Assembly (NCBI RefSeq): GCF_003334765.1
Contig: NZ_QOWT01000002.1
DNA length: 64,000 bases
Source: Escherichia coli
GTDB lineage: Bacteria > Pseudomonadota > Gammaproteobacteria > Enterobacterales > Enterobacteriaceae
Strand: one strand, 5' to 3'
How positions within the stretch are numbered: the stretch's first letter is position 1; each line of letters begins with the position of its first letter. The translations under genes were made by a program, and so were the position numbers. Of this stretch, positions 39,230 through 54,000 are shown piece after piece. Under the pieces are notes generated by a model. It saw only the letters and a program-made list of their open reading frames with translations, had not been told where the DNA came from and searched no databases.

Positions 39230-41071
39230 TTACTGCTGTGTTGCCTCAGTAGCAAGCAGCGGCCTGATGGCATTTGCAGCGTTACTCAACGCTCTTTCAT
39301 AGGCTGGCGTTCCAGCTTTAGTGTTTGCCAGACGTAAGAGAGCATTCCTTGCTGCTTTGGACTCATACAAACGCATCATTGCACCAAAGCCAGCCTCAAG
39401 CCCCATTGATACACCAAGAGTCGCAGTTGCGCCAATCGTCCTTATCCTGTTGGCTTGTGATTGCCCCGTCTGAGTTACTACATTTGCGGTGTCTGACCTT
39501 GCTGTTTGCTGTAGAACTTCATGAAGAGCATCAAGCTCTTTCATGTGCTTTCCAGAAAAAATAGTGTTGTAAATTTCACCGCCTGACTGAGATTTCAGCT
39601 TATTAACTTCAGTGATGAACTTGGCTGGAGAGTCACCGGCCTTTTCCGCTATTTTGCTGACGTAAGCTGCACGCATAGCATCTTTCCCTTTATCATCCAG
39701 GGCGCTCCATATTCGTTTCACGTCAGATGGTTTTCTGCTTAATACAACGGTATTTATAAGTTCAGGACTGGCTTCACTGCTTGCCTTGTTGAGCTTGTTA
39801 GCAATGTTTTTATTAAGCACCTTATTATAAACGTTTGCATAATCAGAATTTGCTTTAAGGTATTTTGCTGCGTCTGATGCACCGAGGTTTTTAGCAACTG
39901 CGTTACGAAGGTCTTTTGACATTGCATTCTCTACCATATTGGTAGCTGCTTTTGCCTGGTTGGGGAAGACCATAGCATCTCCCTGAACATTAGATCTAAA
40001 TGCTGTTCTGTGCTGACGCAAGAGATCAAACGTAACATCCAAATCAGTTGCAGGGTTTGCTAATTCTTCACGTAGGTTACGCAAGGATGTAAGCAGGCTT
40101 TGATTGGCAGACGTCCCAAGCCGTTCCTGTCTTGCGATCGCTGTATTCAGAGCATTCATGGTATTTGTGGTATCAACTGCGGCATTACCCATTTTATTGG
40201 TGACGTCATTGATAACAGCGCCAGCGGCATCCTTCCGCCCCCTTAACGTGGTGGTAAGAGATTTCACCACATCATCAGGGTTGTACTCACCAAAACGGTC
40301 AAAATAATTACTTACCAGCTTACTACGCGTTGCATATTGCTCCGCTCGCTTTGAGCCTGTCCCGAGCAAAGCCCCCTCGGCATCCTGAGTTAGGCCGCGA
40401 GTGAAAGCATTTTTCGGCGGGATAACATCAGATGTCATTGGTGTCACGCCCATCGATTCTGATGTGGCAATTTTCTTCGCCACTTCTGGCGCAATATCAC
40501 CTTTTATAGCCGTTATTCCACGCCCTATTCCCTTTGCTGCTGCGGAAAGAACACCCTGAGTGGCAAGGTTAACTCCGGCATTTTTAGCTGCATTTTGTGC
40601 GAAATCGCCTTTCTGATTTGCGGCCTCTGCCAGTGATCCAATAGCCATGCTTCCTGCCGTTCCAACTCCTGGAACTAAATACCCACCAATTGTTTCACCG
40701 GCTTGCGCGTAGGGGTCTGTCGGTCTGTCTACTGGACGATAAACATCATCCAAAACCTTGGGTCCACCAAGCCCCTGACTGATTGCATTAATCAGACTTG
40801 CGCCGCCCTGCAATACGTCAAATGGTATGTTTACCAGACCACGACCAGCCTGTTCTGCAATTTGCCCTGCACTTTGACCACCAGTGAGCCAATCGCCAGC
40901 TTGTTGCATCAATGATGGTTCTTCCCGTGTTGGTGCATTATTGGCCTGATTAACTGTTTGTTGCTGAACAGCCTGACCAGCAAAATACTCATCAATGGCG
41001 GTGCCAATATCTTCGGTGCTCGTACCATCAGGAAAGGTAAATGTCTTACCGTTTGCAGTTACTTTCATCAT
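39230..41071 (-). CDS. P22 gp16-like DNA ejection protein
   Basis: 613 aa, size and position next to immI as in P22; Ala/Gly-rich. Confidence 0.6.
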
Positions 41072-41337
41072 TCCACCGTAAATTGAATGCCTGATTTTGA
41101 GGTATATGATCCAACCTGATTCCGTGGTTCTCCTGAAGGTGTCGAATCTTGTGCTGGCGCTGCGTCAGTATTCATTGACATATACCGCTTAACGGCACTC
41201 CCCAATGATTCACCTTTTTTAACATCCAACCCCAATATCTGACCGCCATTACGCGATTGTCCAGGGTTGCCATTCGCGCTCATCCACTCGGCTTTAAACT
41301 CATTAAACTGCGCGTTTCGTCGCTCAAGGTTTGCCAT
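41068..41337 (-). CDS. small ORF overlapping upstream gene (possible frameshift remnant)
   Basis: 89 aa, overlaps 41280-42197 ORF by 58 nt in another frame; 4-nt overlap with gp16-like start. Confidence 0.3.
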
Positions 41338-42197
41338 TGCATCAAGCCATCTTGCGACCGTCTCAGGGTTTCCATGTTTACTGACAGCTTAGGTGCTTCG
41401 CTAATCAACTGCTGAGCCTTTTCCTGCGCTTGCTGCATCTTAAACCCGAACTCTTGCTGATCCAGAGCCAAGCGTTGTGCTGCGATATTGTGCCCAGTCA
41501 TTGCTGACTGATAGGAAAGGTTTTGCCCTCTCGCCTGAAGTGCTTCACCAGCCTGATTGCTGCGGATTGTCTCTGCCAGCCTGCCTCGGTCAATCTCACG
41601 ACCAGCCATCTTGTCCTGAACAGCAAACGCCTTTTCTGGTCCAAGCGCACCGAGAGACATAGTAGTCAGCATGTGTGATAGCTGCTCTGGATTCTGGATA
41701 CCTGTCTGAATCATCCAGTCAGCATTAGCACCAACGCGATTTAACCTGTCCTTGTTGTCAGTAATGAATTTACTGTAGGCTTCCGGTCCCTGAGAAAGAG
41801 CGACGTTAGCCCTCATGGCTAAATCGCCCATATCGTTGCGTTGCTGATCATTAAGACCGGAAAACGCCTGTTGTGCCTGTGCAACAAACGCTGGATTTTC
41901 CTGGGCAAACTTAAATAGTCCCGATGGATCACCAGAAGCCCATGCATCAGCGTGAACCTTATTGAACGCACTAATAGCTTTCTGTTGCTGTTCCTGATTG
42001 TAAATATCAGCAACTCCAGCCAGACCACGTAACGCGGTCAGGCCAACGTTATTTGCACCTGAGCGAGCCAGTTCATTGTTTTCGCGGATCAGACCAAGCG
42101 TTGCGTTAATGTCGCTTGCCTTTGGCGCATTCTCATTTTGCGTACCGATGCCAGCCAGAAAACCACCAGAATTAATACCCTGTTGCCACGTAGCCAT
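41280..42197 (-). CDS. P22 gp20-like ejection protein (possibly truncated)
   Basis: 305 aa, Gln/Ala-rich; positioned between gp7-like and gp16-like genes. Confidence 0.5.
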
Positions 42198-42207
42198 TGA
42201 TTACCCC

Positions 42208-42903
42208 TTAATAAAGCAGTGAACCAAGCAGACCGATACCAGCACCGATACCAGCACCCCACGGAGTTGATGAACCAATTAATTTCGCAAGTCCAGCCCC
42301 AGCAATAGCACCAGACGCACCTCCGCCAATAGCAGATTGCATTGCTGATGGTCTGTTGGCATTTGCCGCTGCAAGAGCCGCACTTTGCTGCGAAATCTGA
42401 CTCATGTTGTTGGCATATGTCTGCCCGGCGTTTGCCTGACCTTGCAGTGCGCCAAGACCAATATTTGCCAGATTCTGGTAGTTGTTCATCTGACCAGATA
42501 GCCATTGCTGACCAAGCGTTGGTGCGATTGTTGCTAACTGATTACCGGTTGCAGTGGAACCCAATCCACCTGTTGCTTCCGCTGCCGCCAGACTCTGATA
42601 GCGAGCCTGACCAGCAAGATCTTTGTACTGCTGAGAGTTGTAATACTGGTTAAGTGCCTGACCTTGCCCTTCCAGAGACGATAAGTTCTCGAGGCTGCCG
42701 ACATACTTATCAGCCAGAGGAGTAAACGGCTTCAGGTTGTTCATGATGGTGTTGAACTGCTGATTTTGCAGGTCTGCGGCATACTTCTGAGCTTCTGCTG
42801 CATACTTTGCGCTTTTATCAGAACTGCCACCTTTCCCGCCTTTTTCAGGGCAATAAGGTTCCTCGCCGCGCAGTTTTCTGCCCAGCTTAAATGCATATAA
42901 CAT
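42208..42903 (-). CDS. P22 gp7-like ejection protein
   Basis: 231 aa from internal Met (MLYAFKLGRK) of a 460-aa ORF; Gly-rich hydrophobic C-terminus. Confidence 0.5.
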   Translation of the reverse strand: MLYAFKLGRKLRGEEPYCPEKGGKGGSSDKSAKYAAEAQKYAADLQNQQFNTIMNNLKPFTPLADKYVGSLENLSSLEGQGQALNQYYNSQQYKDLAGQARYQSLAAAEATGGLGSTATGNQLATIAPTLGQQWLSGQMNNYQNLANIGLGALQGQANAGQTYANNMSQISQQSAALAAANANRPSAMQSAIGGGASGAIAGAGLAKLIGSSTPWGAGIGAGIGLLGSLLY

Positions 42904-43590
42904 GGCTAACGCCGAGATGCCGTATTGCGCATAGCTCATACAATCAATTTCGCCTTCGCAAAGTACAACCGCCCTCACGCCAGCGTCCAGAGCCTGCCAT
43001 CCGAACAGACAAGGTTCGCAATCACCTTCTGCCATAATGACTTTCTTCCCGTCCGGGCGCTCAGTGCTGATTCGCTTGACCTGCAACAACTCACCATCGC
43101 GTTTGTACGGAATCACCAGAGCATCCAGTTCTCGCTCTCCATTCCACACCTTGCCGCTGACAACCTCGTAGCGCTTTACGATTTCTGGCGATATGCCACG
43201 CGATTGCAGGTACTCAAGATGGGATTCTGTTCTGGTAACGTAGCGGGCGATTTTCTTGCGATCAGGTCTGGAGAATTTCTTCTCACGTCTGGCATCGAAA
43301 TGGTGATCGTCATCCTTGATACCGAGAAATGCTTTCGCTTCCTGCATAGCCTGATGCAGGTTAATTCCACGACATGCCATCCACAAATCAAGCATGTCAC
43401 CGCCGTCTCCCTCAGCGAAATCAGCCCATTTTTTCTTGCCGCTAAGGTTGACCTTAAGGCTGTTTCCCTTGTCACCGTTGACGTTACCGGCAACCCACTC
43501 ATGCCCCTCTTTCTTGCCGTTTGGCAACAGGTGCGGAGCCACCCTGTCAACCTGCGCCCAAAGCAGGTCGCTAAGTTCACTTGGCGTCAT
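42904..43590 (-). pseudogene. truncated DNA primase fragment (toprim), reads in frame into gp7-like gene
   Basis: 229 aa ending VVLCEGEIDCMSYAQYGIS (DnaG-like toprim EGxxD...AQYGI), no helicase/C-terminal part. Confidence 0.55.
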
Positions 43591-43697
43591 GATTCCCTCA
43601 GATTGAGATTTTTAAACCAGAAATCGACAAACGAAATACTTAACCAGCCGTGGTTATAACCAGCGACCAGTAGCGATTTGATTTTTGATTTCATGGT

Positions 43698-44558
43698 TCA
43701 CCTGTCGAAAAACACGTAGCCAGTTTTCGATACGGTGATTGCGGATGATGGTTTGGATTGTGGTTGAATGGTTTCTGGCTTTTCGTCGTTCCAGCGCTGA
43801 CCGTTCAGGTAGCTCGATGGTAACAACCTGTCGAATCCGAACTGCTTACCATTCCTGCATGCGATGTCTTCTGCCAGCATCGTGGCAAACTCGCTTGCCG
43901 TACCCCTGGTAGTTTTACGCCATTCCCTGAACTGTGTTCTGAATGCCGAAGCTGCGTTTTTCTTCCCGGCTTTCCGCATGCCTGCACACCAGAATATTTC
44001 CTCGAATGCCTTGTCGGTTTCTTCGTGACGGTCAGGTGATTTTTCACACTCCGTCCGAACACTTTCGGACATAGTGTTTTTATTATTTCTTTTTTCTTTT
44101 GTAATAGTTTCTTTTGTGTGTCCCTGTTTTGGTGACAGCGCTGTCACCGTTTTGGTGACACTTTTTGTCACCAATGCGGTGACATTATCACCAGAGTAGT
44201 GACACCCTTCGATTTGCCATTCCTCGATGTTCTTGTTAGGCCCGATTTGCTGGCCTTCGCGAAGGATAACCTTCATCGCGATAAGCTCATTCTTGGCCTT
44301 GTTTACCTTCTGTCTTGGCAGCCTGGTAATTTGAGCTAACTGACTATCAGAGATGCGATCCATCTTTTTACCGTAGCCGTATGTTTTACGGCATATGGCG
44401 TGGGCAACCTTGCTCTGATTTTTCGTTAAATCTGCGCCGATAAGCTCTTCATACAGGGCATTTGCAAGACGGGTATAACCATCTTCAACTTCTGCCACAC
44501 GACGCTCCACAGGCCGTTGTGAAGGCCTTAAATGTGTTACGGTTGCAAGATTACTCAT
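43698..44558 (-). CDS. replication initiation protein, lambda O-like N-terminal domain
   Basis: 286 aa; N-terminal domain typical of phage O proteins. Confidence 0.65.
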
Positions 44559-44697
44559 GACCTTTCTCCTTCTGCATCAGCTTCACTTTTTCCAACTCAG
44601 CCCGGAATCGACCAGGCTGCTTGAAGCTGGACAGGAAGCGATCACGTAGTATGTGTTTGTGAATTTTGTCCTGGTAAGGACTGAGTTGTTTTGTCAT
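44551..44697 (-). CDS. small hypothetical protein
   Basis: 48 aa with AGGAG RBS; stop overlaps O-like start. Confidence 0.35.
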
Positions 44698-44731
44698 AAT
44701 GACTCCTGTGGATTGATCCAGTCTTTCTACA

Positions 44732-45010
44732 TCAGGCCTCGAAGAATTCGCCGTTCTTCGGGGCTTTTTCTTTTGTCAGCATTCTGGCTACTTGCTTAGC
44801 CAGTTCCGCCAACTCCTCGTCTTCAACACCCCATTCAAGAACAGCAAGAAGCATTCCCATTTTGGGGATGAAGCTGTCTTTCCATCGCGAAATTTGCGAT
44901 TCATTAATCCCTAACGCGTCGGCAACCTTTCGCTGACCACGTACAGCAATTCGATTCAGGATGTTGCTTGTAATTGCATTCGCTTTCTTGCGAGTACTTG
45001 TAAGTTGCAT
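44732..45010 (-). CDS. cII: CII-like transcriptional activator
   Basis: 92 aa; [25 protein letters not shown] closely parallels lambda CII. Confidence 0.85.
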
Positions 45011-45118: not shown

Positions 45119-45319
45119 CTATTTGTTTTTCTTGTTGCTTGGGAAAGGACGAACTTCCTCTCCAATCACACTGCCATCAGGCTTTACCGTAACCATAATG
45201 TTACGGCCTGCCAGAATGGCCTTGCTGATAGCGCACTGGATTACACCAAAGTCACTGGCTGCTTTAGCCTGTCCATGGATTTTGGCGTAATCGGCAAGTG
45301 TCATTCGAATCATATGCAC
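45119..45319 (-). CDS. cro: Cro repressor
   Basis: 66 aa; C-terminus [11 protein letters not shown] matches lambda Cro. Confidence 0.85.
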
Positions 45320-45419: not shown

Positions 45420-46136
45420 ATGGAAAATAAAAAATCACTGACGACAGAACAGCTCGAAGACGCTAAGCGGCTTAAGGCTTTGTATGAGTCAAAAAAGAAA
45501 GAATTGGGAATAACCCAATACTCAATCGCTGATGAACTGGGTATCACCCAAGGAGCGGTAGGGCATTATCTTAATGGCAGAAACGCGCTAAACGTTGAGG
45601 TCGCATCTGGTTTTGCACGTTTGTTGCAAGTCTCAATTGCTGATTTTAGCCAGTCAATTGCTGCCAAGGTTGCAGAACAGGCAGAAAGCCTTAAGAGCGA
45701 TGCCAACGTAAGGTATGCAGGGGAATACAGAGCAGGAAAGAGGTATCCGGTGTTAAGCAGTATCCAGGCTGGCTCGTGGTGTGAAGCATGCGAACCATAC
45801 ACCATTAAAGACATAGATGTTTGGCTTGAGTCTGACGCGCATATTCAAGGTAATGCGTTCTGGCTTAAAGTGGAAGGTGATTCAATGACGGCACCGGTTG
45901 GGTTAAGCATTCCAGAGGGAACATTCGTTCTTTTCGATACCGGAAGGGAGGCGATCAACGGCAGCTTGGTCATAGCAAAACTTTCTGACTCTAACGAAGC
46001 AACATTCAAGAAGCTGATAATCGACGGCGGAAATAAATACCTCAAGGGACTTAACCCTGCATGGCCTCTCGTGCCAATCAATGGAAACTGCAAGATTATA
46101 GGCGTTGCAATTGAGACAAAACTAAGGCTGGTTTGA
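45420..46136 (+). CDS. cI: CI-like repressor (HTH plus S24 autopeptidase)
   Basis: 238 aa; N-terminal LTTEQLEDAKRLKALYESKKKELG; C-terminal GDSM...FKKL Ser/Lys dyad; Ala-Gly site. Confidence 0.9.
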   Translation: MENKKSLTTEQLEDAKRLKALYESKKKELGITQYSIADELGITQGAVGHYLNGRNALNVEVASGFARLLQVSIADFSQSIAAKVAEQAESLKSDANVRYAGEYRAGKRYPVLSSIQAGSWCEACEPYTIKDIDVWLESDAHIQGNAFWLKVEGDSMTAPVGLSIPEGTFVLFDTGREAINGSLVIAKLSDSNEATFKKLIIDGGNKYLKGLNPAWPLVPINGNCKIIGVAIETKLRLV

Positions 46137-47864: not shown

Positions 47865-48392
47865 TTGATAGGATATAAAATGGCATTTATAAAGATTCTT
47901 GAATTAATTTCCCTAAGTGAGATTAATAATGTTGTCAAATATAACCCTATTTCTGGTGAGTTCACATGGCTAAAATCTTATGGAGCAAGAAAGATAGGTG
48001 GAACTGCCGGAACAATAACAACAAGCGGCTACTTAAGGATTTTCATTAACGGAAGACACTATGCTGCACATAGACTTGCATGGATTATCACTTTCGGTGT
48101 TGAGCCTGAAGGTATTATCGACCATATAAATGGCATAAAGACAGATAACAGAATTTGCAATCTGAGGCTTGCAACTTACTCACAGAATTCAATGAATAGT
48201 AAAATAAATACCCTCAACAAATCAGGTTGCAAAGGAGTCACATGGAAGAAGGAAAGTAGAAAGTGGGCTGCCTATGGGAAATTAAACGGGAAGAAAAAAC
48301 ATCTAGGGTACTTTAATGAATTAGAAGATGCCAAAAAAGCTTACTGCGACTTTGCCAGAAAGCATCACGGCGAATTCTACAGGAGCAAATAA
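47865..48392 (+). CDS. HNH endonuclease with AP2-like DNA-binding domain
   Basis: 175 aa; IDHINGIKTDNRICNLRLAT HNH motif; GVTWKK...YGK..GKKKHLGYF AP2-like. Confidence 0.75.
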   Translation: MIGYKMAFIKILELISLSEINNVVKYNPISGEFTWLKSYGARKIGGTAGTITTSGYLRIFINGRHYAAHRLAWIITFGVEPEGIIDHINGIKTDNRICNLRLATYSQNSMNSKINTLNKSGCKGVTWKKESRKWAAYGKLNGKKKHLGYFNELEDAKKAYCDFARKHHGEFYRSK

Positions 48393-52630: not shown

Positions 52631-52674
52631 TTACCTGATTTGCAGGTTCGATTCCCTATTCGGAGATAGCACTC

Positions 52675-52948: not shown

Positions 52949-52964
52949 CTGCAGGGGACACCAT
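52949..52964. other. attR core
   Basis: ctgcaggggacaccat, direct repeat of argW 3' end. Confidence 0.8.
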
Positions 52965-53058: not shown

Positions 53059-54000
53059 TTATGAAGTGGTTTTTACCTGTTCTCTTAGCCAGATAATAAA
53101 CGCTTCAATTTTTGGCCACTGCCTGCCCGGTAATGTGGTGATGTAATAATGCTGATGGCATTTCACCGTCATATCGCCAAACGGCGCGACGAGCTCACCA
53201 CTGGCAAGCCTTTTTTGTACCAGGCGTTTTCTTCCCATCGCCACCCCAATATGATTCATCGCGGCAATAACAGCTAAATCAGAACGATCAAAGCCAATTC
53301 CAGAAGATGTCGGCAAATTAACCGCATAATGTTGCGCCCAACTATGCCATTCATCCGTACCGGAGTCGTTGCTCCATGCCTGTCTGTCATGGAGCAACGT
53401 ACAGTGACACAGGTTAATTACCGTGTTGGTTAAAGCATGTCTTTGAGCGTATTCCGGGCTACATACTGGCAGGATTTCTTCATCCATCAGAAAGTGATGA
53501 GTGAGTTGCGCTGACGGCGCATCATCAAAGTAGATCGCCAAATCGATTCCGGCACGTTGCAGATTGACGTTGTCATTACCAGTGAGCACGGTGAGCGAAA
53601 TAGACGGATACCGGCGTGTAAAGTCACCTAATGCGGGCACCAACCAGCATTGGGCGATAGAGGGCCGGGAATACAGAGTTAACGTTCCCGATAACTCCTG
53701 ATTTTTGATATCAAGAATTTCCTGGTTCAGGGTATCCAGCGACGATTTTAGCGCCCAATAAACACGTTTCCCCTCGTGCGTTAATTCCACTTTGCGATGG
53801 GAACGAACAAACAACTGAATGCCCAATTCTTCTTCCAGCTGATTGATACGGTGACTTACCGCACTGGGGCTCAGCGACAATTCCTCTGCCGCCAGGGCGA
53901 AGGACTGATGCCTGGCAGCCACTTCAAAAGTATGCATTTTTGATAATTGCCAGCCGTTAAGCAGCCGATTTCTTATTTCACGAAGGGGTTCCATAATCAC
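53059..54000 (-). CDS. dsdC: LysR-type regulator of D-serine utilisation
   Basis: 313 aa LysR HTH plus substrate domain, divergent from dsdX. Confidence 0.85.
   Translation of the reverse strand: MIMEPLREIRNRLLNGWQLSKMHTFEVAARHQSFALAAEELSLSPSAVSHRINQLEEELGIQLFVRSHRKVELTHEGKRVYWALKSSLDTLNQEILDIKNQELSGTLTLYSRPSIAQCWLVPALGDFTRRYPSISLTVLTGNDNVNLQRAGIDLAIYFDDAPSAQLTHHFLMDEEILPVCSPEYAQRHALTNTVINLCHCTLLHDRQAWSNDSGTDEWHSWAQHYAVNLPTSSGIGFDRSDLAVIAAMNHIGVAMGRKRLVQKRLASGELVAPFGDMTVKCHQHYYITTLPGRQWPKIEAFIIWLREQVKTTS

Follow-up and report, generated by a model that had tools for sequence, protein, structure and literature searches.

A chimeric primase–gp7 reading frame in an Escherichia coli prophage and the recurrent breakpoints of its primase parent

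What does it mean when one open reading frame (ORF) holds the beginning of a phage primase and the whole of a phage ejection protein? The question is raised by a 64,000-nucleotide (nt) stretch of Escherichia coli DNA (contig NZ_QOWT01000002.1 of assembly GCF_003334765.1), referred to here at its full length as the window, in which such a chimera of 460 amino acids (aa), primase'::gp7, lies within a P22-like prophage at argW. Taken as a whole, the locus is very probably the scar of one illegitimate deletion of ~17.8 kilobases (kb) in that prophage, with a left break bound to a short sequence motif. Nothing was found that contradicts a deletion.

One reading frame composed of two distant phage genes

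The chimera and its parts occupy the following positions (a slash within a sequence marks the break or cut):

42208–43590, minus strand: chimeric ORF primase'::gp7, 460 aa, identical to CAM3376988.1 ('hypothetical protein', E. coli ESCO106035)
42907–43590, minus strand: 5' 684 nt of the primase/helicase gene (aa 1–228; the intact gene has 1881 nt and encodes 626 aa)
42905–42910, minus strand: deletion joint with the product hexamer GTTAGC, from primase GTTA/TC and gene 14/7 spacer GATA/GC
42208–42903, minus strand: complete gene 7, ejection protein gp7, 231 codons plus stop (PHROGs, Pfam)

The open-reading-frame listing gives a single ORF with an ATG start over this interval. The initial annotation described it as two unrelated halves, which is borne out: each half matches a different gene of P22-like phages, and the two genes are normally distant. 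Aligned separately to phages, the halves fall on primase genes on one side and on the end of gene 14 plus gene 7 on the other. By megablast, ORF nt 1–684/690 are 98–99.6% identical to the primase/helicase genes of Sf101, mEp043, vB_EcoP_24B and Stx2 phages, and nt 683–1367 are 95–98% identical to the gene 14 end and gene 7 of UPF_BP1, HK620 and N7. In PHROGs, aa 1–229 match DNA primase/helicase phrog_239 (E 2.4e-48, profile positions 9–216 of 801) and aa 230–460 match 'DNA ejection' phrog_598 (E 1e-100, profile 1–232 of 240). No homologue was found in which both halves form one contiguous protein across many phages, and the deletion reading stands.

Residues 1–228 are 97–99% identical to the N-terminal region of 624–629-aa primase/helicases, whose intact members carry PF03796/PF13481. 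The chimera thus shares its N-terminal region with the bifunctional enzymes that combine a Toprim and a DnaB-like domain (Twinkle/T7 gp4-like; Sf101 gp45; Stx2 'replication protein P'). The primase identity assigned earlier to the first 229 residues is correct for 228 of them only, since A229 (GCC) comes from the spacer between gene 14 and gene 7. Likewise, the DnaG-like toprim motif is present (VVLCEGEIDCMSYAQYGI, aa 207–224), but only the first strand of the Toprim fold is kept. Pfam finds a truncated Toprim_2 (PF13155) at aa 209–230 (model 1–25 of 88, E 0.031); the remnant stops after the first Toprim motif, CEGEID, and the break comes after ...CEGEIDCMSYAQYGISAL, so that no complete Toprim catalytic domain is present. 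Unlike the intact primase/helicases, the chimera lacks Toprim model positions 26–88 and the DnaB-like helicase domain, and a tblastn search with primase aa 229–626 finds nothing in the window. Because the Toprim remainder and the whole helicase domain are lacking, the chimera is not an active primase or helicase.

The second half was said to be an ejection protein beginning at an internal methionine, and M230–Y460 is indeed a complete P22 gp7 (P22_gp7, PF25688, at aa 230–458; model 1–229 of 230, E 2.6e-131). It keeps the OpdA processing site ...CPE/KGGKGG and the Gly-zipper C-terminus. In P22, host OpdA removes the first 20 residues of gp7 and leaves KGGKG as the mature N-terminus (PMC8402733), and OpdA-type processing of the chimera is conceivable from the retained site. 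The position is that of the gp7 family, with gene 20 remnants and gene 16 directly downstream on the same strand. The N-terminus is not free, as 229 foreign residues precede the leader, and the window contains no scaffold, coat or portal gene. The chimera would have no phage role, because capsids are lacking.

The deletion joint

The breakpoint was mapped by aligning the joint against the Sf101 primase and the gene 14/7 boundary of the E. coli HS prophage; on the gene 14/7 side, the HS prophage and the window are 100% identical. The primase parent reads ...GGCATCTCGGCGTTA/TCCGTGCCG..., the gene 14/7 boundary parent reads ...CACGGGAGATA/GCCATGTTATAT..., and the window reads ...GGCATCTCGGCGTTAGCCATGTTATAT.... 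The joint is ...GGCGTTA/GCCATG..., at which the parents share only the dinucleotide TA (42907–42908). The break falls after primase nt 684 and 5 nt upstream of gene 7, whose ATG is at 42903–42901; the GCC at 42904–42906 is the spacer remnant encoding Ala229, and the gene 14 stop codon TAG at the joint is read out of frame. In the mechanism proposed here, a deletion would have joined these two points at the shared TA.

The native Shine-Dalgarno sequence of gene 7, GGGAG, was left of the break and has been deleted; the primase start retains its ribosome-binding site, GAGGGA, 5 nt before the ATG. For this reason the gp7 sequence can be translated only as a fusion, and a ribosome would be expected to start at the primase ATG and produce the 460-aa chimera. 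The chance of an in-frame joint is 1 in 3, and the reading frame was kept by chance.

The lost block and the state of the prophage

Intact Lederbergviruses (P22, Sf6, HK620, Sf101, UPF_BP1) have the order O, primase/helicase, nin, Q, lysis, terS/terL, portal, scaffold, coat, 4, 10, 26, 14, 7, 20 and 16. The window is collinear with Sf101 from genes 16/20/7 (40554–42908) straight into primase-O-cII (42901–44854) and further along the early left operon. Across the joint, the matching position in Sf101 changes from 9492 to 30476, so that ~17.8 kb of the 38.7-kb genome is missing. The missing part comprises the helicase domain, the nin genes, Q, the lysis genes and every head gene as far as gene 14, tail-needle genes included. 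The initial annotation was right that the morphogenesis and lysis block is gone, and too narrow in leaving out the helicase domain, the nin region and Q. Searched by tblastn against the 64-kb window, 17 Sf101 proteins of the lost block had no match: the primase C-part (aa 229–626), NinB, Dam, NinG, Q, holin, endolysin, Rz, TerS, TerL, portal, scaffold, coat, gp4, gp10, gp26 and gp14. By the same search gp7, gp20 and gp16 do match. The proposed deletion would have left the prophage without the rest of Toprim, the helicase, nin, Q, lysis, head and tail-needle genes.

The borders of the prophage are defined by a direct repeat at the sole tRNA gene in the window, tRNA-Arg(CCT) argW (32271–32345):

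32331–32345, plus strand: left attachment site (attL) core CTGCAGGGGACACCA, the 3' end (last 15 nt) of argW
32471–33664: integrase gene
52949–52963, plus strand: right attachment site (attR) core CTGCAGGGGACACCA, a 15-bp direct repeat
53059–54000: dsdC, beyond attR

The prophage integrated at argW therefore spans 32331–52963 (20.6 kb), and 20.6 kb plus ~17.8 kb gives ~38.4 kb, a normal Lederbergvirus size. Its order is integrase, acetyltransferase, tailspike, ant, arc/mnt, two small secreted or immunity-like ORFs, 16, the 20 remnant, the fusion, O, cII and cro, then cI, the N-region, a RecT module and an AlpA-type excisionase. It is a defective Lederbergvirus prophage, which retains the att repeats at a tRNA together with int, cI, cro, cII and O and has lost the late block. 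With no helicase, Q, lysis or head genes, it should no longer be able to replicate, lyse the cell or make particles. A 16-nt stretch that repeats an internal part of argW (TTGCAGGTTCGATTCC) was observed within the prophage at 52640–52655, ~300 nt from attR and just upstream of the AlpA-type excisionase gene; an earlier integration may have left it behind, or it may belong to attP.

The element can be compared with two kinds of relatives. Like Lederbergviruses, it keeps the order of the ORF halves and their neighbours (O, cII, cro and cI on one side; 20, 16, mnt/arc, ant, tailspike and int on the other), at 77–99.6% DNA identity; unlike them, it lacks 17.8 kb, from primase nt 684 to gene 7, and is not a viable phage. 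Cryptic prophages such as CPS-53/KpLE1, which lies at argW in E. coli K-12, resemble it in the argW site (yfdC...dsdC), in the tRNA-adjacent integrase, and in the loss of replication, lysis and morphogenesis with retention of immunity and accessory genes. In contrast to them, the element is very young: it is confined to one clone, has one large and one small deletion, and its remaining genes are ~98–100% identical to those of active phages.

Distribution of the fusion

The exact protein forms a singleton 90% cluster in a collection of 15 billion proteins, and in a search of 5.8 billion proteins the sole full-length match was the query itself. None of 50,697 phage records or 5,426 complete E. 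coli genomes has the joint or covers at least 80% of the query, and the joint is likewise missing from the GTDB species representatives and IMG/VR. No diverged homologues with the same architecture, as a conserved multidomain fusion would have, were found in the collections searched.

The joint was found on ~10 E. coli contigs, from one NCBI assembly and several SRA runs (short-read assemblies). Three carrier loci that were compared are 99.97–100% identical to the window where aligned, with at most one mismatch and one 1-nt gap. The joint is real and clonal, because ~10 near-identical contigs from several samples carry it in identical form, and the carriers represent one recent clone.

Downstream of the fusion lie two further ejection genes:

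41068–42197, minus strand: gene 20 (ejection protein), broken into 305-aa and 89-aa ORFs
39230–41071, minus strand: gene 16 (ejection protein gp16), 613 aa, apparently intact

Gene 20 is split by a second deletion of ~286 nt, with its joint at 41358–41381 (cf. L003 12200–12520) and its right end in GATAAC. This deletion is present in the window and in contig L005 (SRR3951470), whereas sister contigs L003 and L004 keep an intact 471-aa gene 20 together with the same primase::gp7 joint. The gene 20 deletion is thus a later step, and decay went on after the large deletion.

Two other in-frame primase::gp7 chimeras were found, one running from primase aa 320 to the gp7 C-terminus (P0002/L128) and one from primase aa 127 to mid-gp7 (P0019/L129). 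Given these at least two further independent fusions with other breakpoints, deletions from the primase gene to gene 7 arise repeatedly.

Recurrent breakpoints in the primase gene

Many further copies of the same primase, truncated or chimeric, came up in the protein searches, and their breakpoints cluster at three points. Each of these clusters (HS0, HS1 and HS2) coincides with a GTTAYC hexamer (nt 352, 681 and 898), and the coding strand of the 1881-nt gene has no others. HS1 is the break of the window; HS0 is still intact there:

43234–43239, minus strand: HS0, GTTACC, primase nt 352–357, a recurrent deletion end-point elsewhere

At HS0 (after V118), the primase is joined to TerL (P0148), to gene 7 out of frame (P0151), to dam (P0154) and to a gp16-like sequence (P0157); HS0 also serves as the right-hand deletion end in P0202 and P0276, where the primase part begins at T119. 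At HS1 (after L228/S229), the partners are gene 7 in the window (P0001), coat (P0006), a tail fibre (P0008), TerL (P0009) and roi (P0012), and P0202 breaks at HS1 as well. At HS2 (after V305), they are gene 7 out of frame (P0007) and dam (P0014). The DNA of eight events (L006, L007, L008, L126, L127, both L132 joints and the window) reads ...ACGTTA/CC, ...GCGTTA/TC or ...GTGTTA/CC. The events are independent, because the lysogens differ in their immunity and recombination modules.

They are also rare in absolute terms, as the sequences sampled are intact: all 116 of 116 IMG/VR loci with the left flank are unbroken at HS1, and among the 292 complete E. coli genomes that carry this primase, no HS1/HS2 truncation occurred in 60 sampled rows. 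Avoidance of the motif was rejected, as neither phage nor host DNA is depleted in GTTAYC.

A separate observation concerns a variant of the primase (P0286, 727 aa, 'replication protein P, partial [Shigella flexneri]', in a cluster of 1494) that carries a LAGLIDADG intein (PF14528). The intein sits in the Walker A loop (GHGK/.../TEVVGH), and the L130/P0010 deletion breaks 6 nt downstream of that insertion point.

Partner sites and the origin of the breaks

When all sites were aligned on the shared TA, a pattern also emerged on the partner side. Among 10 distinct partner sites, which include GATAGC, GGTATC, GCTATC, GTTACC, GTTATC and GATAAC, G stands two bases before TA in nine and C two bases after it in seven, giving G-N-T-A-N-C, a form to which most junctions conform in both parents. 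On the two flanks of TA, the preceding base is in every case that of the left parent and the following base that of the right parent, which places the crossover within the central TA. The hexamer that results, GTTAGC in the window, again has the form G-N-T-A-N-C. Some partner sites were used twice: AATA/AC in dam (P0014 and P0154) and GCTA/TC in the middle of gene 7 (P0007 and P0151). Two events identified without reference to the primase show the same feature, namely a gp7::gp16 chimera (P0064) with its break at GGT/ATC of gene 7 and the gene 20 deletion of the window. The pattern suggests a sequence-specific break-and-join process.

The competing account is ordinary microhomology-mediated illegitimate recombination, by slippage or end joining at a random position, with the recurrence of GTTAYC as an ascertainment effect. 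E. coli is known to make deletions of the microhomology type, the overlap in the window is only 2 nt (TA), unrelated microhomologies (GGCA and ATG among them) occur at several other primase fusions, and no enzyme has been identified for a motif-bound process. A random position is at odds with the counts: of ~22 scored events, ~14 have an end at one of the gene's three GTTAYC hexamers (binomial tail for at least 13 of 21 events at three positions in ~700 nt, ±1 nt, ~5e-20). It is likewise at odds with the outer G and C of the partner sites and with the repeated use of those in dam and mid-gene 7. Moreover, HS0 and a gene 7 site share a 10-nt perfect repeat that the deletions did not use, which disfavours homology as the driver. 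On balance microhomology appears an unlikely, though still serious, explanation of the break.

Most likely, a sequence-dependent cut or strand exchange would have occurred in the middle of a G-N-T-A-N-C-like site, and two such sites would have been joined. We tentatively propose, as a possibility that falls somewhat short of probable, that a previously unrecognised break-and-join activity in Enterobacteria cuts in the middle of G-N-T-A-N-C, with a strong preference for (C/T/G)GTTAYC, and joins two sites. Such an activity would be either a nuclease with ligation or a recombinase acting on very short sites, and would time and again remove the block from replication to morphogenesis in lambdoid and P22-like prophages, locking them in the chromosome. 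As each product would again be a hexamer of this kind, stepwise deletion would be possible. Three features, (i) a short two-fold-symmetric site, (ii) a central crossover and (iii) the use of a site as either the left or the right deletion end, lead one to expect a dimeric enzyme. It might make a central cut, blunt or with a 2-nt TA overhang, followed by ligation, or carry out a 2-nt exchange of the serine-recombinase type.

Several observations weigh against the hot-spot mechanism. Three partner sites deviate at an outer position; the junctions of L128 (GGCA microhomology), P0052 (TT), P0017, P0122 and P0123 do not follow the hexamer rule; and no candidate enzyme was found. As regards the accidental nature of the scar, the ORF is open and 100% conserved among the contigs, which is uninformative on selection because the contigs are near-identical throughout.

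Known activities were compared with the breaks. Hairpins were rejected: the small CGG...CCG palindromes around HS1 and HS2 are no more stable when folded than shuffled sequences (z -0.8 to -1.9), and the break falls in different parts of the two predicted structures. Secondary integrase sites were also rejected, as the break motif bears no relation to the att core CTGCAGGGGACACCA, and Rpn nucleases are reported to be without sequence specificity. RusA cuts 5' of CC, RuvC at (A/T)TT/(G/C), integron integrases at GTTRRRY (G/TT) and IS608-type elements at TTAC/, and IS5 targets YTAR; none of these fits the position of the crossover, nor do Hin/Gin sites, Chi, the DnaA box, Ter or the P22 pac site. 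A homing endonuclease appears to fit less well than a short-motif enzyme, because the partner sites are spread over the whole genome, though HNH ORFs are scattered in these phages. Such ORFs were observed in the window at 47865–48392 (plus strand), where the early left operon holds a 175-aa ORF with HNH_3 and a weak AP2 domain that resembles a free-standing homing endonuclease, and as NUMOD4/HNH_3 ORFs in related prophages (L008, between O and the primase and between scaffold and coat; L006, between gp10 and gp26).

Two further activities share some features with the breaks. EcoRV cuts GAT/ATC bluntly, and GTTATC is its preferred star site (PMC4081073). As in EcoRV star cleavage, GTTATC is the hottest break site, six of the 13 distinct sites differ from GATATC by a single base, GATATC itself (the cognate site) is never used, and the crossover lies mid-hexamer, as a central blunt cut with ligation would give. 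Unlike EcoRV star cleavage, the breaks include GTTACC sites (HS0, HS2 and a gene 7 site) that are two bases from GATATC, and they come from several unrelated lysogens in which no EcoRV-type system is known. Recombination by type IIA topoisomerases is similar in joining two cleavage sites without homology and in its symmetric site preference. The cleavage determinants of E. coli gyrase and topoisomerase IV (-4G/+8C, -2A/+6T, -1T/+5A, and +1G/+4C with quinolones) are published (PMC6379681, PMC10117906), and these motifs do not fit the G-N-T-A-N-C sites. In addition, a 4-nt stagger with direct religation predicts an overhang that is all left-parent or all right-parent, and a hybrid is seen instead.

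Predicted expression and the question of function

The fusion lies in the early rightward operon, with the following genes upstream:

43698–44558, minus strand: lambda-O-like replication initiator, intact, 286 aa, immediately upstream in the same pR operon
44732–45010, minus strand: cII, early rightward operon
45119–45319, minus strand: cro, early rightward operon
45420–46136, plus strand: CI-type repressor, intact, HTH_3 and Peptidase_S24, 238 aa

No terminator-like site was found on the minus strand between cro and the fusion, and no promoter of the fusion's own stood above chance. The fusion is therefore expected to be silent in the lysogen, where the intact CI repressor should keep pR shut, and to be transcribed from the early pR transcript only once CI is inactivated by SOS-induced cleavage. 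In the proposed scheme, gp7 would be made only upon CI inactivation, and only as the chimera, from the primase start on this transcript.

Could the chimera nevertheless have been domesticated as a functional host protein, for example as a membrane-targeted primase fragment or a gp7-based superinfection-exclusion factor? Its 460 codons are open and present in several samples, its gp7 part is complete with the OpdA site, and the prophage retains other moron-type accessory genes. Yet the protein is a singleton with no diverged relatives in 5.8 billion proteins, its carriers are near-identical clones that have left no time for selection to show, the adjacent gene 20 is already decaying in the sublineage of the window, the fusion sits behind a repressed promoter, and elsewhere the same primase break is joined to arbitrary or out-of-frame sequence. 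Domestication is thus very improbable, and there is no sign of a selected function for the chimera. That the joint is an artefact of sequencing or assembly, a chimeric contig, is hardly credible even though the carriers are known from short-read assemblies only: the identical joint occurs in an NCBI assembly and independent SRA runs (~10 contigs), a 2-nt overlap is too short for false bridging by k-mer assemblers, the later gene 20 deletion is nested in a subset of carriers, and the size deficit of the prophage equals the missing block.

Accessory genes and a missing restriction site

Accessory, moron-type-looking ORFs lie between mnt and gene 16 at 38465–39205 (plus strand), one Rap1a-like (PF18602, 111 aa) and one of 129 aa with a signal peptide; the corresponding mnt–gene 16 position of a related locus (L131) holds a gene with a SIEA domain (PF26849). 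A hexapeptide-repeat acetyltransferase, which might be an O-antigen modifier, is encoded between the integrase and tailspike genes (33857–34528, plus strand). Counted on both strands, GGTACC (KpnI/Acc65I) is absent from the Sf101 (L001) and E212 (L009) genomes (0 vs ~18 expected) and from the prophage of the window (32346–53005; 0 vs ~5 expected), and occurs 12 times in the flanking chromosome (~19 expected). Its absence may reflect restriction-site avoidance.

Discussion

The 460-aa ORF is an accidental in-frame scar, a product of ordinary prophage decay in a young, clonal and defective prophage. The fusion itself is ordinary; the recurrence of motif-bound breakpoints is the unexpected part and is unexplained by the candidates tested.

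The locus provides a clean and datable case of a temperate phage turning into a harmless chromosomal remnant, in which one deletion strips the replication, lysis and virion genes and leaves immunity, integrase and accessory genes in place. Gene-callers annotate such a scar as a 'hypothetical protein'. If a specific enzyme acting at a 6-bp motif is indeed responsible, the domestication of prophages would be partly directed rather than a purely random decay, and the activity would be a new player in bacterial genome stability and in the conflict between phages and their hosts.

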